Shown here in pieces: positions 5,419 to 19,356 of a stretch of 64,000 nucleotides of DNA; position 1 is the first letter of the stretch, and every line of letters begins with the position of its first letter. Source of the stretch: an uncultured virus (IMG/VR IMGVR_UViG_3300006128_000010) (Duplodnaviria > Heunggongvirae > Uroviricota > Caudoviricetes); the IMG/VR virus record IMGVR_UViG_3300006128_000010; one strand, written 5' to 3'. The notes beneath the pieces were generated by a model that saw only the letters and a program-made list of their open reading frames with translations, searched no databases and was not told where the DNA came from. A program made the translations under genes and the position numbers.

Positions 5419-6789
5419 TTAACGATCTATCTTTGGCAGTTTCTTTAGTGCTTGCAACTCACTCTTATAAATTGCTCGTTGTCTGGTGGGATCACCCAGT
5501 ATGTCTTGGTAGTCTGCAATAGTAGCTGTCAACTCTGCAATGCGCTTGGCTATTTCATCATATGCATCCCGGGCCCAGCGATAGCTGGGTAGACTTGCAA
5601 TACGTTCTATTTGATCATCATCAAGTGGTATCTTAGCCTTGTTACATATGGTTTTAATTTGTTCAACTACTTCTGCTTTATTCTGGGCCGTGGGTAGAAA
5701 CTTGGGCAAGTTCTTGTCAATACACTCTTTAAGTGCCAAGTTGAAACACAGTGTATAGGTAGCATCTGCAACTAACTTTTCATAACGAGTTACATACCAA
5801 CCCAATCGCCAAGCCACAAACTCTGTTAACAGTATTTCTGCATCTTCATACTGCTTGATACTATCACCGTCCCAGTCAAGAACAACCAATCGTTCAGTTG
5901 TTTTACTCTTGAGTTTGAAGAATTCGATTGCTTTATCTTCTGTCCAACCGTTAATAGTGCCACGCTTGAACCGTACTTCAATCTTGATCTCTTTTGTACT
6001 GCGATCAATGTAAGTTTGTATTTGATCATCGTCTTCCATTTTGTTAAGACGTGCTTTGAATTTTTCTAGTGTTAGATCAGGTGGCAATTCTTCAACCCAA
6101 ACTGTGCTGCCGTCTAGTCTGACTTTACCAGTAAACTCCCAGGCATTGCCGCCCAGGTTACGAGTCTTACAATCAAGGTAATCATATGTTGGAATCAGTC
6201 GATCAAACTTCTTACCGTCTAATACCTTAATACATGATTCAATTAGATCTTCTAACTTGCGTGGTAGTATTTCTGTACTCCAACCCACAGCAATACCACT
6301 AATACCATTTAATAGCACCAGAGGTACAAGCGGTAAGAAGTTCTTGGGTTCTAATACTGAACCATCATAGTTTTCTTTTAGTGGAATAATATCGTAGTCA
6401 GGATATATTAGTGCCTCTGTTATGCCGTTCTTTTTGAGATAGGTATAACGAGGAGCACCCCAATCAGTAGGTCCAACCTTGGTACCAAATGCACCAATGC
6501 CTTGCAAGAACGGGACATTATTACAGTACGTAGCAGCCATTAAACTTAAAGTATCAGCAGCACTTGCGTCACCATGGAGGTAACAACCGCTTGATATCAT
6601 TGATCCTGCTAAAGAAATAGTTTTAATTTTTTCACTAATTGGTTTAATAACAAATAAAGCTTTACGTTGTGCATCTTTAAGACCATCACTGATACTAGGA
6701 ATGCCGCGGTTTTGGCATACATATATGGAATATTCCCGACTAGTAGTTTTAATATAATCTGTAGTATCCTGGTACATTGTTATTGTCAT
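5419..6789 (-). CDS. type II topoisomerase breakage-reunion subunit (gp52/GyrA-like)
   Basis: DGLK..QRK, YLHGD, APRY catalytic Tyr, LLNG.SGIAVG. Confidence 0.95.
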   Translation of the reverse strand: MTITMYQDTTDYIKTTSREYSIYVCQNRGIPSISDGLKDAQRKALFVIKPISEKIKTISLAGSMISSGCYLHGDASAADTLSLMAATYCNNVPFLQGIGAFGTKVGPTDWGAPRYTYLKKNGITEALIYPDYDIIPLKENYDGSVLEPKNFLPLVPLVLLNGISGIAVGWSTEILPRKLEDLIESCIKVLDGKKFDRLIPTYDYLDCKTRNLGGNAWEFTGKVRLDGSTVWVEELPPDLTLEKFKARLNKMEDDDQIQTYIDRSTKEIKIEVRFKRGTINGWTEDKAIEFFKLKSKTTERLVVLDWDGDSIKQYEDAEILLTEFVAWRLGWYVTRYEKLVADATYTLCFNLALKECIDKNLPKFLPTAQNKAEVVEQIKTICNKAKIPLDDDQIERIASLPSYRWARDAYDEIAKRIAELTATIADYQDILGDPTRQRAIYKSELQALKKLPKIDR

Positions 6790-7670
6790 GTTGCTGATGC
6801 CTTTTTACAATTATCTCCGTGCCATCTTGTATAATTTCCTAAATTTGTTTCTATTCCGCAGTGTGGGCATACCTTACGAGCATTTCGAGCCCGCAATCCA
6901 GGACCACATTTTTCAAGTCGCTGTTCAGGTGTCATAGAGTCCCAATTTGCTTTTACAATTTTAGAGCGTCGTTCATAGTACAGTTCTTTTTCTTTTTCAG
7001 TAAAATCTTTCATTGCCATTCGTTCTTTAAATTTCTCTCTGCCGTGTTGCCAGGATTCTAAATTCGGATATTGTTTAGCCAACTTAGCTATTTTTACCTT
7101 CCATGCAACTTGTTTATCTGTTAAACCATTGTTTCTTTCTTTTTGTTCTGCTATCTCTTGTTCTAGTAATCGTGTTTTACATTCAGGATTATAATTAATA
7201 TGTTTTACTGTATTATTTAGAACATCTGGATGATTTATAGATAATTTTTTAATGCTACCGTCTGGATATCTATAAATTGCCATACCTGATCGTCCAGTTG
7301 ACTTATGTAGTCCTGCTTGATGATTTTGAAACCGAGTTTTGCGAGCCTTTTGTAATATCTCAGGTGTTTTTACAATATAATTGCCTTTATTACCGTTATA
7401 ACCATTGGGCCATAATGTTCCTAAATATTCTATGTAAAATTCCTCCTGAGTTTTAAAATATAAATCATCCTGATTGCCTTCTTCTAACAACTCGACTACA
7501 AAATCTTCAACAGTTGCGCTACCTGATTTTAACTCATTCCATAAATAAACTCCGCCTTTACCGGTCATATGCTCCTGAAATCGTTTAAGATAATCTTTAT
7601 CTCTTGCTATGACTATTCCAATGTAAGACTTGTTATTCTTAATATTTGTAATTTTATAAACTTGTTTCAT
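6786..7670 (-). mobile_element. free-standing GIY-YIG homing endonuclease
   Basis: VYKITN..NNKSYIG, R..EH, E..YI, GYN; C-terminal CPHC...RWHGDNC; lies between the topoisomerase genes. Confidence 0.85.
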
Positions 7671-7729
7671 GATTTTCCTTATCGCTAGTATAATTATAAT
7701 ATATATTTGCACTGCGATAAATTTTATTT

Positions 7730-9616
7730 TTAATTAATTTTATTATCTAAGCTAATCCACTCCTTGCGATTATCAGCCCTTGCTGAATTAAATATCAAAT
7801 CCAGTGCCTCACCTAATTTACCATCATCTGTGATAGGAATCAACTGAGGTACCTTTAAACTGTGTATCCAATCTTCTTCTTCAAGACTACCCAGGCCCTT
7901 GGCTCTGGTCGGCTTTGGACAGTTTTTCCAATCCTTAGGATCATACTCGTGATAGTTGTGAGCATACCAGTAGTGACGTTTCTTGGCCTTCTCCTGAATA
8001 ATAAAAGGAGTTTGAAATGCATAAAAGTAGGGTTCCTGTTTGGGATCAAACAACTCCGGCCAATACAAATAAAAGAAGTTGATCAACAATGCAGTAATGT
8101 TAGCACCGTCTGGATCCTGATCCGCTGCCAAGTATACTTTACCGTAGCGTAGATCTTTGCGTTCAGCTCGTTGGCCTAACACACAACCAATACTGGTCAT
8201 TAGATCCTGTATGATTTGATTTTCTACAATGTCCTTGGGTGCTTCGCCACGTACGTTTAGAATCTTACCACGTAGGGGTAAAGCGCCATGTACTTCTGGA
8301 TCACGTACAGCACTTATCATTCCTTTAGCAGAATCACCTTCTGTAATAATAAGAATACAAGTGGATCTGTCTTTACCATTGGCATCTAGTAATTTTGGTA
8401 CTTTGTTACGCATGAGCTTGCGACCAATCTTGGCCAAGTCTGCGTCATCTCGTTTTTGTGTTCTAGCTGCACACCTTGCGTAGATTTCGTCAATCCACGG
8501 CTTGTGCTTTTTGATAATGTCCTTAAACACTTCCTCATTATCGAAGTATGCTTTGATATAACTGTCAACATTCTCATTAATGAGTCTGGATTTAGATTGT
8601 GAGTCAAAGTCTGGAGAAAACATAGTCGTCACGTTATAAATTAACAACCCCTCGCTGATGTCAGACCGATTAGGAGTTAATCCTCGACGTTTGCTTTCAC
8701 GTTCTAGTGCTCGAATAAGCCCGCTATAGAACATTCTCTTGAATGTATCAATATGAGTACCGCCATTGAACGCAGGAATATCATTTACAGTGGTATGTAT
8801 ATACTCGCCGTCTTTGGCAAAGTTACTCACAAGATAGAACGCACTATTAAAGTTCTTATCATCGACGCTTAGTTTAATAACTTCTTTGTCATTAAAGAAT
8901 GTGCGTTCAATTGAGTGCTTGACCATAATACGTTCGCCATTGAACGTAAATTTAACCCTGGGATGGTTAGCGGCTATTTCATGTATACGTGCTTGCATAA
9001 ATGCCAAAGGTAACTTGGCATTTTTAAACACAGTCTTGCTTAATTTAAATTTAACTTGTGTTCCGCTATGACCACCGTTCTTGGTAATCTTTGGTTCATT
9101 GATTATTAATTCTGGAAATAGGTCGGATCCTTCTTTGAACTCTTGTATAAACTTCTTGCCGTCACGATGTATTTCTAAATGAAACCATTCAGAGCAGTTT
9201 ACAACCGTGCTTGCACCAATGCCGTTGGTACCACGTACTTCTTGACGATCACCAAAGTTACGACCAGCTCGGGCTTGTGTTAGTGCCAGTGTAGCTTTGT
9301 GTATACGTTCATTCTCATCCCAGTCAATTGGAATACCGCGACCATCATCAGTAACTGAGAACACCATTTCTTTTGGTTCAAAGGTTATGTCAATCTTGGA
9401 ACCTTTCTTGTGACCGATTACCTCGTCCAGTGCATTATCTAGTAGCTCTCTAAATGCACAATAAACAGCAGGTGTCCAGGTTAGATCCATTGGCAGTAAT
9501 TTGGTTCCATTCCAATGTACTATGTTTTGTGTATGAGCAGTTCTACTGCCCAGGTACATTTCTGTACGTTTGCGATGATGTTGGTAATCTGTGAGTTTGA
9601 TAATTTCTTCTGACAT
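7730..9616 (-). CDS. type II topoisomerase ATPase/TOPRIM subunit (gp39+60/GyrB-like)
   Basis: ELLDNALDE, DDGRGIP, GTNGIG, EGDSA, PLRGKILN, DQDPDG, KGLGS. Confidence 0.95.
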   Translation of the reverse strand: MSEEIIKLTDYQHHRKRTEMYLGSRTAHTQNIVHWNGTKLLPMDLTWTPAVYCAFRELLDNALDEVIGHKKGSKIDITFEPKEMVFSVTDDGRGIPIDWDENERIHKATLALTQARAGRNFGDRQEVRGTNGIGASTVVNCSEWFHLEIHRDGKKFIQEFKEGSDLFPELIINEPKITKNGGHSGTQVKFKLSKTVFKNAKLPLAFMQARIHEIAANHPRVKFTFNGERIMVKHSIERTFFNDKEVIKLSVDDKNFNSAFYLVSNFAKDGEYIHTTVNDIPAFNGGTHIDTFKRMFYSGLIRALERESKRRGLTPNRSDISEGLLIYNVTTMFSPDFDSQSKSRLINENVDSYIKAYFDNEEVFKDIIKKHKPWIDEIYARCAARTQKRDDADLAKIGRKLMRNKVPKLLDANGKDRSTCILIITEGDSAKGMISAVRDPEVHGALPLRGKILNVRGEAPKDIVENQIIQDLMTSIGCVLGQRAERKDLRYGKVYLAADQDPDGANITALLINFFYLYWPELFDPKQEPYFYAFQTPFIIQEKAKKRHYWYAHNYHEYDPKDWKNCPKPTRAKGLGSLEEEDWIHSLKVPQLIPITDDGKLGEALDLIFNSARADNRKEWISLDNKIN

Positions 9617-9955
9617 GACAGTTGTTAGTTATACCTTTTATCAGTAACTTGTACAATATAGTACTTTAACTTCGATTAATTTATTTGTCATCTGAAAAGA
9701 TTGAAGCGATGCTGTAACTGTACAACATCGCTTCTTTCGAGTTAATAAGGTTAATATATTACGAGTTTTTACAAAAATAATTAAGTTAAATTTCAATCAA
9801 TTCAACGCATACACGTGGCTGATTGAATAATACAAAAATAATTTACGCTACAATAAGTTTCATCAAACATCACTTGATATCAACTGTTTGTCTGGTTAAT
9901 ACCAAGCAATGTTATTTATAGTACCATTCAGTGGCATTAACTGTCAAGTTTAAAG

Positions 9956-10162
9956 TGTGGGTATCGTAACCTGTTTAAAATCCGCAGTCCTAATGACTCT
10001 TACTAGTGTAGTCCACCGGCTACCGCAGATTCCCAATATTAGATCTTTCAGCCAGTTGTCCTACCTGGCACCTGCTACTCCCCTGTTACGGGTGATCTAA
10101 ATTTGGGTCGTGCTGTTCCTCTACGATTAGGATCTGTGACTCGTCTTTCCTCCAGACCCACA
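9956..10162 (-). ncRNA. unassigned structured ncRNA (~207 nt)
   Basis: GC-richer non-coding island with nested helices; promoter TTGCAA-N16-TATAAT ends just before the 5' helix. Confidence 0.6.
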
Positions 10163-10202
10163 AGATCATTATAATAGATAAGTTTAAAATTGCAACCGTT
10201 GG

Positions 10203-10397
10203 TTAGATAATTGCAACAGCAGCAGTCACATATCGTGATGCAACCATAACGCCGATGTTGGAAATTATCTTCAATATTGCTGTAACAGTCTTACGTCTTT
10301 TGTTGATTTTGAACACACGTTTAACCAGGAACATAACGCCTTCGATTACCACAAATTCTATGACTTCTTTTATTATTATATTTCTTGCTGTCAACAT
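10203..10397 (-). CDS. small hydrophobic/basic protein
   Basis: 64-aa ORF, GGAG SD, two hydrophobic stretches. Confidence 0.5.
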   Translation of the reverse strand: MLTARNIIIKEVIEFVVIEGVMFLVKRVFKINKRRKTVTAILKIISNIGVMVASRYVTAAVAII

Positions 10398-10484
10398 GGA
10401 CGTTACTCCAACTACAAATAGTGTTCGTCAATATTTACTTATAGTTCAAAAAAAGTCAACTCTTGTTGTGATTTTTAAAGTAAT

Positions 10485-10800
10485 AGGGAGATTGTTTAAT
10501 ACGGTTCTCCCCTGACCGCAGACCTTAAACCTTAAGCAGCGATTTTCATCTCTACAACAGGTGTATTGTCATTTGCAAATGCGTTAGCATTTATTAGTTT
10601 TATTGCATTAACCAAGCTTTCGCCGGACCATCTACTTCAATCTTTATTCGCTTGTTAATCCTATGTCTGGCCCATCATAGTAACATTGCCAACCGCAAAG
10701 GGCGATTTCGTGGGCTAAGCCTAGGAAACAATGTTACTATGGTAGATCAGCCCGGTACTGCCCCGGGGTCCATAACGTTTTATTACATTGCTATCAACAA
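10485..10800 (-). ncRNA. ssrA: circularly permuted (two-piece) tmRNA
   Basis: T-arm and acceptor end ...CTGATCTACCA (to 10740) precede 5' piece GGGCCAG (from 10673); G3:U70 pair, A73; tag frame (ANAF)ANDNTPVVEMKIAA* at 10532-10588. Confidence 0.92.
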
Positions 10801-10808
10801 TGGTAATT

Positions 10809-10838
10809 TATTTATAGTGTCTTATTTTAAATTGTCAA
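10809..10838 (-). promoter_or_regulatory. tmRNA promoter (overlapping early and late boxes)
   Basis: TTGACA-N16-TATAAATA. Confidence 0.7.
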
Positions 10839-11023
10839 TCAACGCTGTCTTCTTTGCCAGAAATGGATCTCATCAATGATATGGGATAATCCACAATACG
10901 AGACAGTGCTTCTATTGCTAGTTCTTGTCTGACACCACCAGCAATTTTATCTTTAGACCACATGACATATTTGATTAATGCATTAATATCACGTGCATTT
11001 TGATCGCGAATTTCGTTCTGCAT
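10835..11023 (-). CDS. hypothetical protein
   Basis: 62-aa ORF with GAGGG SD downstream of a structured leader. Confidence 0.55.
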   Translation of the reverse strand: MQNEIRDQNARDINALIKYVMWSKDKIAGGVRQELAIEALSRIVDYPISLMRSISGKEDSVD

Positions 11024-17329: not shown

Positions 17330-18418
17330 TTATAGCTTACAAGCTTCGCAGTCTGAATCATCGTCACTGTAGTCTATCGGTGCCAGTTCTTTAATTAGAT
17401 CAAGGTCATCAACTTTTGACCCAGATTTATCCATTAGGCTATAATACAAGGTCTTCAATCCCCATTTATGTGCCTGCATTAAATTTTTAGCTATCAATGT
17501 GGTTGGGACTTTGCGATCTGGAAAATGTTTAGGCGAATAAAACGTATTCACTGAAATAGCCTGATCAACATATGCAGCTAACACCGCAGCAGTTTTCAAA
17601 TATCCGATACAGTCTGTTTGATCCCACATCAACTGATACTTGTTCTTGAGTCTGTGATATTCCGGAACCACTTGCGTAAGTGATGCAGCCTTGCTTTCTT
17701 TAGTAGCAATCAAACTCATTGGCATTTCTATACCATTTGTTGAATTAATACAAACTGAACTTGATTCAACAGGAGCAACTGCTAGCAGCGTAGCATTACG
17801 TACTCCGTGTTGTTTTATTTCATTTCTTAATGATTCCCAGTCAAGTTCTGGTGTAAAGTCTGTAAGCTCATTAACACCATTTGCTCTTAACTCCCAAGGA
17901 AACGTGCCTTGGCCATAGCGTGTCTTAGCACTATCTAAACAAGGACCGCGTTCCTTTGCCAGCTCTACTGTTGCTTCAGTTAAATAAAATGCCTGATGCT
18001 CTATAAATGTCTTTACTTCTGCTAAGCATTCTGGATCACCATACTTCAATCCTCTCTTGGCTAAGAAGTATGCTAGATTAGTGACACCTATGCCAATCGG
18101 ACGTATCTCGTCATTTGATAATTTAGATTGGATACTCAAGAAGTCCTGATAATCTAAAATGTTATTCAAGCTTCTAAGCAGAATTCTACAAGCACGTCTC
18201 ATGTCTTCTGGATTGCGGAATGCACCCCAGTTAATTGATCCAAGTGTACATAGGGAAATACGACCTTCTGCATCATCTAAACGCTTGAACGGCTTGTTAG
18301 GTAGTGTGATCTCACAATTATGAATCAATATATCGTTAGCAAAAAAACATTCTGTTTCTGGAACAGAAATGTCGTATACGTCAGTTTGTTTAACTTTGAT
18401 TTTTTTAATTTTGATCAT
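17330..18418 (-). CDS. nrdA: NrdA C-terminal fragment fused to C-terminal split intein (34 aa)
   Basis: VYDISV...FFANDILIHN|CEITLP; CTLGSIN, KTLYY, C-terminal CEAC. Confidence 0.95.
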   Translation of the reverse strand: MIKIKKIKVKQTDVYDISVPETECFFANDILIHNCEITLPNKPFKRLDDAEGRISLCTLGSINWGAFRNPEDMRRACRILLRSLNNILDYQDFLSIQSKLSNDEIRPIGIGVTNLAYFLAKRGLKYGDPECLAEVKTFIEHQAFYLTEATVELAKERGPCLDSAKTRYGQGTFPWELRANGVNELTDFTPELDWESLRNEIKQHGVRNATLLAVAPVESSSVCINSTNGIEMPMSLIATKESKAASLTQVVPEYHRLKNKYQLMWDQTDCIGYLKTAAVLAAYVDQAISVNTFYSPKHFPDRKVPTTLIAKNLMQAHKWGLKTLYYSLMDKSGSKVDDLDLIKELAPIDYSDDDSDCEACKL

Positions 18419-19356
18419 ATTTTTAATTTTCCTAATTTAAAATCTGGATTATGTTTACAAAATTCTGCTTCGTTTGTGACTTTTATATTTTTCACTCCAT
18501 TATTGTACCAACGATGTTTTGAAGAATGCGCAGATGCTAATTTTCTTTGTGCATTGCTTCTATGATATGAATCATATTTAATTTGAGTACCTTTTACTGA
18601 GTTAACTTCATTTAATAAATCATTCACAGAATCATAATTATTCCAAATCCAAGCTAATGATATTTTTTTAAACTCTGAAAATTCTTTTTTTATTGCAGAA
18701 GTAAGTAGTGACAATTTTAAATACCTGTCTTGACAAGAATTAACTACACAATTTAATAATCTTTCTCGTCTTTCAAGGGTTAGCTCTTTATAATTAGTGT
18801 TATTTGAACCTACTTGTGACTTTCTATTTGCTGTTTTTGCTGGAAGACCTTTACAATGGTGAATCCATTCGCCGGATAATACTTTCGGATGATCTATTGG
18901 CACAGAACCTATTTTTTTCCGAGTTAGTGCATCCACAACCGGCATTTTTCCAGTTTTTGCTTTACTAATACTCTCGATTCCCAACATACGCAAGTGTTCC
19001 ATCTCTTTCAAAAAATTACTATCAATCTCTGATAAATTTTTCTGTCTTTTATGATTCCCTGTGGCTTTTACAAAAAAGAATTGCAATGCTGAGCCAGCTG
19101 AATATGCATATCTTGAATCTTTATATATTTCATACAAATAATAATGTGCTATTAAATGTTCAGAAAATGTTAGAAAAACCAAGTTATCAGAACTGTTTGG
19201 GTTCCCATCTAAATGTCCCTTAGGTCCGGGTCGCCTCCGGTTTTTAAATAGAAAATCTGGAATAATATGATGTACTTCATAATATATTCCTTGATTCTTC
19301 ATTCTATTCTCTTTTCTAGCATTATCAATAATATTTTTATACAACTTTTTATACAT
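18415..19356 (-). mobile_element. free-standing HNH homing endonuclease inside fractured nrdA
   Basis: YEVHHIIP...NLVFL...EH..AH; WYNNG module; AT-rich. Confidence 0.88.

Follow-up and report, generated by a model that had tools for sequence, protein, structure and literature searches.

A 207-nt element between a two-piece tmRNA and a topoisomerase II gene of an uncultured phage is probably a real RNA gene, because its promoter, its paired ends and a step in GC content coincide. As an insert it is specific to the lineage, and the site that it occupies between these two genes is variable. The element was studied in a window of 64,000 nucleotides, i.e., the whole stretch of DNA analysed, from IMG/VR record IMGVR_UViG_3300006128_000010. 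An earlier note on this DNA had described it as a stand-alone, promoter-driven structured RNA of no known family. The promoter, the GC island and the helix statistics bear out this description, and the Rfam scan of the element returned no family at E<=10. The features discussed below are collected in Table 1.

Table 1. Features of the element and of its surroundings (positions in the window)
Feature	Position	Strand	Evidence
Candidate 207-nt non-coding RNA, paired ends, without its own terminator	9956..10162	-	Folding, promoter, shuffles, Rfam null
Sigma-70-type promoter (TTGCAA, 16 nt, TATAAT)	10168..10195	-	10/12 consensus matches
Closing helix P1, 5' strand, pairs with 9956-9962	10156..10162	-	7/7 pairs, probability 0.78
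Middle helix of the earlier note, 5' strand, pairs with 9988-9994	10126..10132	-	7/7 pairs, probability 0.10
Alternative helix B, 5' strand, 7 bp with 9963-9969, adjoins P1	10121..10127	-	Probability 0.26 nested
Core domain, 12-bp helix and two capping hairpins	10032..10107	-	Helix probability 0.96-0.99
Alternative 3' stem-loop D	9979..10031	-	Probability 0.69
Next promoter, 9 nt past the RNA 3' end, TATAAATA word at 9920	9918..9947	-	Promoter scan
Conserved hairpin, 2x4 internal loop, within unit 9947..9703	9793..9826	-	Covariation across relatives
Intrinsic terminator, nearest one after the RNA	9703..9734	-	Terminator scan
Topoisomerase II large subunit gene, flanking marker	7730..9616	-	ORF and protein family match
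Orphan 64-aa basic/hydrophobic ORF (ORF64)	10203..10397	-	Exclusively on contigs also bearing the RNA
Two-piece (permuted) tmRNA	10482..10842	-	Rfam RF01849, RF04321

Genomic setting, promoter and composition

The virus record that contains the window is 65 kb long and ~15% complete. The topoisomerase II of the window is 55% identical to that of Sinorhizobium phage Phosso and 51% to that of Agrobacterium phage Atu_ph07, both of which have genomes of 470-490 kb. The window belongs to a jumbo phage that is a distant relative of these two; its host would be an alphaproteobacterium, and its tmRNA is of the alphaproteobacterial type. The minus strand carries, in this order, an arginase-family gene, the tmRNA, ORF64, the 207-nt element, an AT-rich unit and the topoisomerase gene, the AT-rich unit having its own promoter and its own terminator (9947..9703, minus). 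The element had been placed next to the tmRNA; the tmRNA is indeed there, but ~320 nt off and with ORF64 intervening. Identical copies of ORF64 occur on 12 contigs, of which the longest has 305,602 bp; the ORF has no Pfam or PHROG family, a protein search returned ORF64 itself only, and a feature-based Atlas search gave no usable match.

The two pieces of the tmRNA are separated by a spacer (~10680-10740 in the window) that is long, GC-rich and closed by a hairpin, and that differs from phage to phage among those compared (the window, L011, L017, L028, L040 and L041). Homing endonuclease genes lie between the two topoisomerase subunit genes (6786-7712, minus) and inside a split ribonucleotide reductase gene (18415-19356, minus), the pieces of which bear intein domains. 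The lineage of the window phage collects RNA genes; one complete relative, G004, has GOLLD and skipping-rope RNA and more than 50 tRNAs. The GOLLD and skipping-rope RNAs of G004 are found at L256 13462-13918 and L257 3057-3173, and YrlA-like permuted tRNA modules and an unassigned GC-rich RNA of ~400 nt were seen there by eye (L256 474-900, L257 17193-17600). Both complete relatives also have tRNAs with a CUA (amber) anticodon (L299 1051-1206 in G003, L255 9519-9593 in G004).

The promoter that the earlier note had seen feeding the first helix is present on the minus strand (10195..10168) and has a perfect -10 box. With the usual spacing of 6-7 nt, transcription would start at ~10161-10162, and this predicted start coincides with the 5' end of the closing helix. 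There are 36 comparable minus-strand sites in the 64 kb, and the probability that one of them lies within 2 nt of the helix end by chance is ~0.3% by our own arithmetic. The higher GC content was likewise borne out, with 48.3% in the element vs 28.9% and 32.7% in its flanks; only 1.9% of all 207-nt windows are equally GC-rich. Purines make up 124 of the 207 nt (60%). The statement that there is no ORF has to be modified in that a plus-strand GTG frame of 47 codons (9957-10100) and a 28-codon frame beginning at the predicted +1 exist; neither is supported as a gene, and the element is non-coding in character. It is not a leader, since it does not lie upstream of a coding gene. No terminator was found between the element and that at 9703-9734, and the 3' end would therefore come from trimming.

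Predicted fold of the transcribed strand

All three nested pairings that had been described were recovered, with 7/7, 7/7 and 12/14 pairs, and so were the two apical hairpins (10051-10069 and 10081-10092), which cap the core helix 10032-10045/10094-10107. The end-joining 7-bp helix arose in 1/1000 dinucleotide shuffles, the 12-of-14 helix in 9/300, and at least three Watson-Crick helices of 7 bp in 31/1000. The folding-energy z of the transcribed strand is only -1.6 to -2.1, which is weak evidence; values of -2.1 or below also occurred in 7 of 30 random windows, and windows of the tmRNA reach just -1.2 to -1.6. Among the unpaired bases, 77 of 113 are purines, and purine-rich unpaired bases are usual in loops of folded RNAs.

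Within the predicted fold, the closing helix and the 12-bp core with its junction are firm, and the remainder is not. Four folds, namely the best one, the rod and two that are branched, all lie between -59.2 and -60.2 kcal/mol. The middle helix reaches a probability of 0.96 on the plus strand vs 0.10 on the transcribed strand, where stem-loop D competes with it. Helix B may stack on P1, whether as a nested helix or, on the best fold, as a pseudoknot; a pairing of this kind was available in 12/250 shuffles. The apical loop of stem-loop D holds a 6-nt palindrome (10002-10007), as was the case in 9/120 shuffles. The helix B pairing and the loop palindrome are leads, not results. An RNA from the plus strand was considered and rejected: it folds better, but its promoters match the consensus at 8/12 positions only and end 34-41 nt before the RNA, and its loops would be pyrimidine-rich.

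Distribution among relatives and the downstream hairpin

The earlier note had proposed collecting homologues from related phages; nothing was recovered beyond letter-identical copies, i.e., one distinct sequence. Using nhmmer, the element was found at 2 of 43 topoisomerase loci, both identical to the window, and the remaining 41 are without it; 19 of these have a match resembling tmRNA close by, weak in two cases. In the closest non-identical relative (88% identity) small ORFs occupy the site, which among relatives is variable and filled by differing accessory genes. The relatives retain the downstream AT-rich unit and its hairpin without the 207-nt element, the occurrence of which is patchy. 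A look-up of sequencing runs that contain the element gave no RNA run.

The other similarity searches agreed. With blastn, the phages gave just two short matches at E 0.3, the plasmids gave no match to the element, and the best E among four related records was 0.19. With nhmmer, eight matches were obtained in 109 loci, every one from the two identical contigs, and none in 16 metagenome and genome loci or in 58 stretches from four relatives. The covariance model R1 was built on one distinct sequence and hence has limited reach. It matched only the identical record among 39 virus records (the 38 non-identical ones include three complete genomes and Phosso) and the window alone among 61 sources. 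R1 had no match among 88 pattern loci, among 16 loci, in 151 genomes of one bacterial class, in Phosso or Atu_ph07, or in the 58 stretches of relatives (best E 0.08), and without filters it yielded short partial matches of at most 15 bits. Five pattern scans of viral contigs returned 6, 24, 90, 30 and 31 loci (80 of the 90 with full flanks), in each case the two identical contigs and otherwise chance matches; the 2, 14 and 7 loci from three genome scans were all chance. One metagenome scan by the topoisomerase N-terminus, with identities of at most 83%, gave identical or chance matches only. All of these searches for the element depend on exact words or close similarity, and distant homologues may escape them. 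One of the chance pattern matches (L055 ~560-630), for which Rfam gave no family, resembles on visual inspection a remnant of a tRNA-Cys that lacks the D-arm.

Covariation supports the hairpin at 9793-9826 better than it supports the 207-nt RNA. The stem of this hairpin has 8 bp, and its 2x4 internal loop is fixed; the hairpin precedes the topoisomerase gene by 160-226 nt and is set in AT-rich surroundings with a promoter on one side and a terminator on the other. A strict descriptor found it at 8 of 57 loci, in eight distinct sequences, and in none of 570 shuffles. In an alignment of nine sequences two-sided changes occur at 8 of 11 pairs, and about a dozen further loci show it by eye in a variant register. 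It has no Rfam match and could be a small RNA or an origin element.

Possible functions and comparison with known RNAs

We tentatively favour a stand-alone RNA that is made early and, in trans, binds protein as a decoy or a scaffold; this mechanism was reached mostly because alternatives were excluded. The element would be an accessory gene, transcribed early from its own promoter by the host sigma-70 polymerase into a compact RNA of ~207 nt. The transcript would probably read on to the terminator at 9703 and then be trimmed to the closing helix, giving a mature RNA with paired ends, a stable 12-bp core and a three-way junction. Its A/G-rich single strands may dock mutually via helix B, and the folded surface would, during the take-over, bind an RNA-binding protein or a nuclease of the host and serve as its decoy or scaffold. 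This is consistent with the alignment of promoter and helix end, the GC island, the helix statistics and the purine-rich unpaired bases; with the lack of an antisense target, of a leader position and of a catalytic RNase P core; and with the variable accessory-gene site and a complete relative that has stand-alone RNAs such as GOLLD. Against it stand the missing homologue and hence the missing covariation, the weak folding z, and the presence of four folds within 1 kcal/mol.

A search for a partner protein or binding motif gave none, the ANGGA, T-loop and SRP helix-8 words being absent. A CsrB/RsmZ-type sponge has several ANGGA motifs in its loops, and the 207-nt RNA has 9 GGA but 0 ANGGA. For a tRNA, tmRNA or YrlA identity, with a T-arm and T-loop beside an acceptor-like stem, no T-loop word and no Rfam match was found, and ARAGORN reported 0 genes in the window, having missed the tmRNA too. 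The test for an SRP RNA was likewise negative for the helix-8 word and in Rfam. Several other candidates were rejected, i.e., a tRNA-Leu likeness of the RNA 5' end (no T-arm), an insertion sequence or MITE (an end repeat of just 7 bp, in a single copy in the contig), an antisense cassette (the longest match to its own contig is 14 nt, also seen in 33/500 shuffles), and an antisense RNA to the tmRNA, the ORF64 message or the downstream RNA (duplexes no better than those of shuffles).

It is conceivable, though rather doubtful, that the element is the founding member of a class of compact jumbo-phage RNAs not described so far, in which a long-range helix stacked on the closing stem gives a tertiary fold and a palindromic loop brings about dimerisation. 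Such an RNA could be a ribozyme or an RNA weapon against host defence or transcription. An unlikely alternative is a non-functional remnant, i.e., a GC-rich foreign scrap with helices from small internal duplications, or else a leaderless micro-ORF. The weak z-score, the orphan status and the short internal repeats visible in the sequence are what a remnant would show, and the 28-codon frame from +1 would suit a micro-ORF; however, the coincidence of promoter, paired ends and GC step argues against the former, and the start codon of the latter would lie buried in P1.

It is quite unlikely that the RNA is a small GOLLD/ROOL analogue, in which a palindromic-loop dimer and loop-loop folding would build an RNA-only assembly with no protein partner. 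The palindrome in the hairpin loop and the 7-bp pairing of two loops that are open in the best fold would fit such an assembly, as would GOLLD in a relative, and palindromic kissing loops are reported for GOLLD and OLE in the available part of the source (10.1101/2024.12.08.627333). However, both signals are borderline and were sought post hoc, GOLLD and ROOL are far larger, and the element has no Rfam match. A role in cis or as DNA is also quite improbable, whether as a purine-rich R-loop or primer before the AT-rich stretch or as protein or methylation sites. The 60% purines followed by DNA of 29% GC, the three GANTC and three GATC sites (0.7 and 1.0 expected) and the lack of a terminator point in its direction; on the other hand, relatives keep the AT-rich unit and hairpin without the element, and the GC skew of two complete relatives swings repeatedly, with no clear origin.

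A 6S-like RNA, as the earlier note had suggested, is very unlikely. In this reading an irregular rod would mimic an open promoter and sequester the sigma-70 polymerase, and so time the switch from early to late transcription. Like E. coli ssrS and alphaproteobacterial 6S RNAs, the element has paired ends, a similar size and an energetically possible rod (-59.6 kcal/mol when completed vs -60.2 for the best fold), and T4-like late promoter words are present in the window. The 6S consensus, in the available part of its description (PMC4064990), has one central bubble, with a terminal stem on one side and a long closing stem on the other. This architecture is lacking here; a forced rod is near-equal in energy, but the middle helix has a low probability on the transcribed strand. 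Five real 6S RNAs are rods with outer stems of 15-38 bp, 67-71% of bases paired and 1-3 hairpins, whereas the 207-nt RNA has an outer stem of 7 bp, 58% of bases paired and five hairpins, and is less stable. Four alphaproteobacterial 6S RNAs have five 6-mers in common, all of which are absent from the 207-nt RNA. RF00013, which recovered alphaproteobacterial 6S RNAs in 4 of 5 control genomes, had no match to the element at E<=10 and none in the genome of the phage. Trapping of the polymerase would presumably also withdraw the core enzyme, on which a T4-like phage depends in its late phase. Among the papers listed by literature searches on phage-encoded 6S-like RNAs, none describes a phage RNAP decoy in its title or in the opening lines of its abstract; should the 207-nt RNA prove to bind polymerase, it would represent such a decoy.

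Activity of RNase P is needed by tRNA-rich phages and by two-piece tmRNA, and the element could in principle be a heavily eroded RNase P-like RNA, either still a ribozyme, with an altered core, or an inactive relic able to bind tRNA or RNase P protein; this is highly improbable. In its favour, a scan of 40 related records with RF00010 was negative, one near-best fold shows a similar helix order, and an 8-nt word of conserved region I lies near the 5' end. A further word of 11 nt, chosen post hoc and found in 22/1000 shuffles, is common with E. coli rnpB. The size fits minimal phage RNase P RNAs such as that of phage A3Wally (221 nt), and like a minimal RNase P RNA (RF00010) the element is ~210 nt long with a short closing helix and possibly a long-range helix adjoining P1. 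However, for P4, a bulged pseudoknot helix beside P1, the best partner makes 6/8 pairs and does not adjoin P1, whereas the controls E. coli, A3Wally and MaAM05 make 8/8 each. There is no P2/P3 ahead of the conserved-region word, and no CR-IV or CR-V word by descriptors that are present in the controls. The rnpB alignment was equalled by 151/300 shuffles, a profile of 60 RNase P RNAs yields no score, and the Rfam scan detects the A3Wally RNA at E 3.7e-21 and not the 207-nt RNA.

The RNA of Microbacterium phage A3Wally (MZ150783, L479 617-837) is an unannotated minimal RNase P RNA with two flanking tRNA genes, 72 bits with RF00010 and an intact P4. Microcystis phage MaAM05 (MW495066, L478 762-1161) has an unannotated full-size RNase P RNA of 252 bits, which could be host DNA within the record. 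Diverged RNase P RNAs have been reported in CPR bacteria, as far as the available part of that report goes (PMC8172020). Literature searches on RNase P RNA, jumbo or huge phages and tmRNA and on 6S RNA, with subscription papers mostly outside coverage, gave no description of the 207-nt RNA.

Few phage non-coding RNAs have known jobs, and this RNA is small enough for direct synthesis and testing; its value is limited by the single sequence and the uncultured host. The viral candidate structured RNAs of Fremin et al. are, in the available part of that work (PMC10690425), 30-151 nt long and required at least three distinct sequences. The element resembles them as an intergenic viral RNA predicted from sequence and differs from them with its 207 nt and one sequence; it was not found in three of the six supplements. 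Compared with GOLLD/ROOL as described in the available part of 10.1101/2024.12.08.627333, it falls below the size criterion of >400 nt, being one third to one quarter of their size, and has no Rfam match and no known covariation. It shares with them the stand-alone occurrence in a phage, a neighbourhood of RNA genes that serve translation, and possibly a palindromic loop and contacts between loops. The 207-nt RNA is unlike every catalogued family tested, yet it falls within the stand-alone phage RNAs of unknown function.
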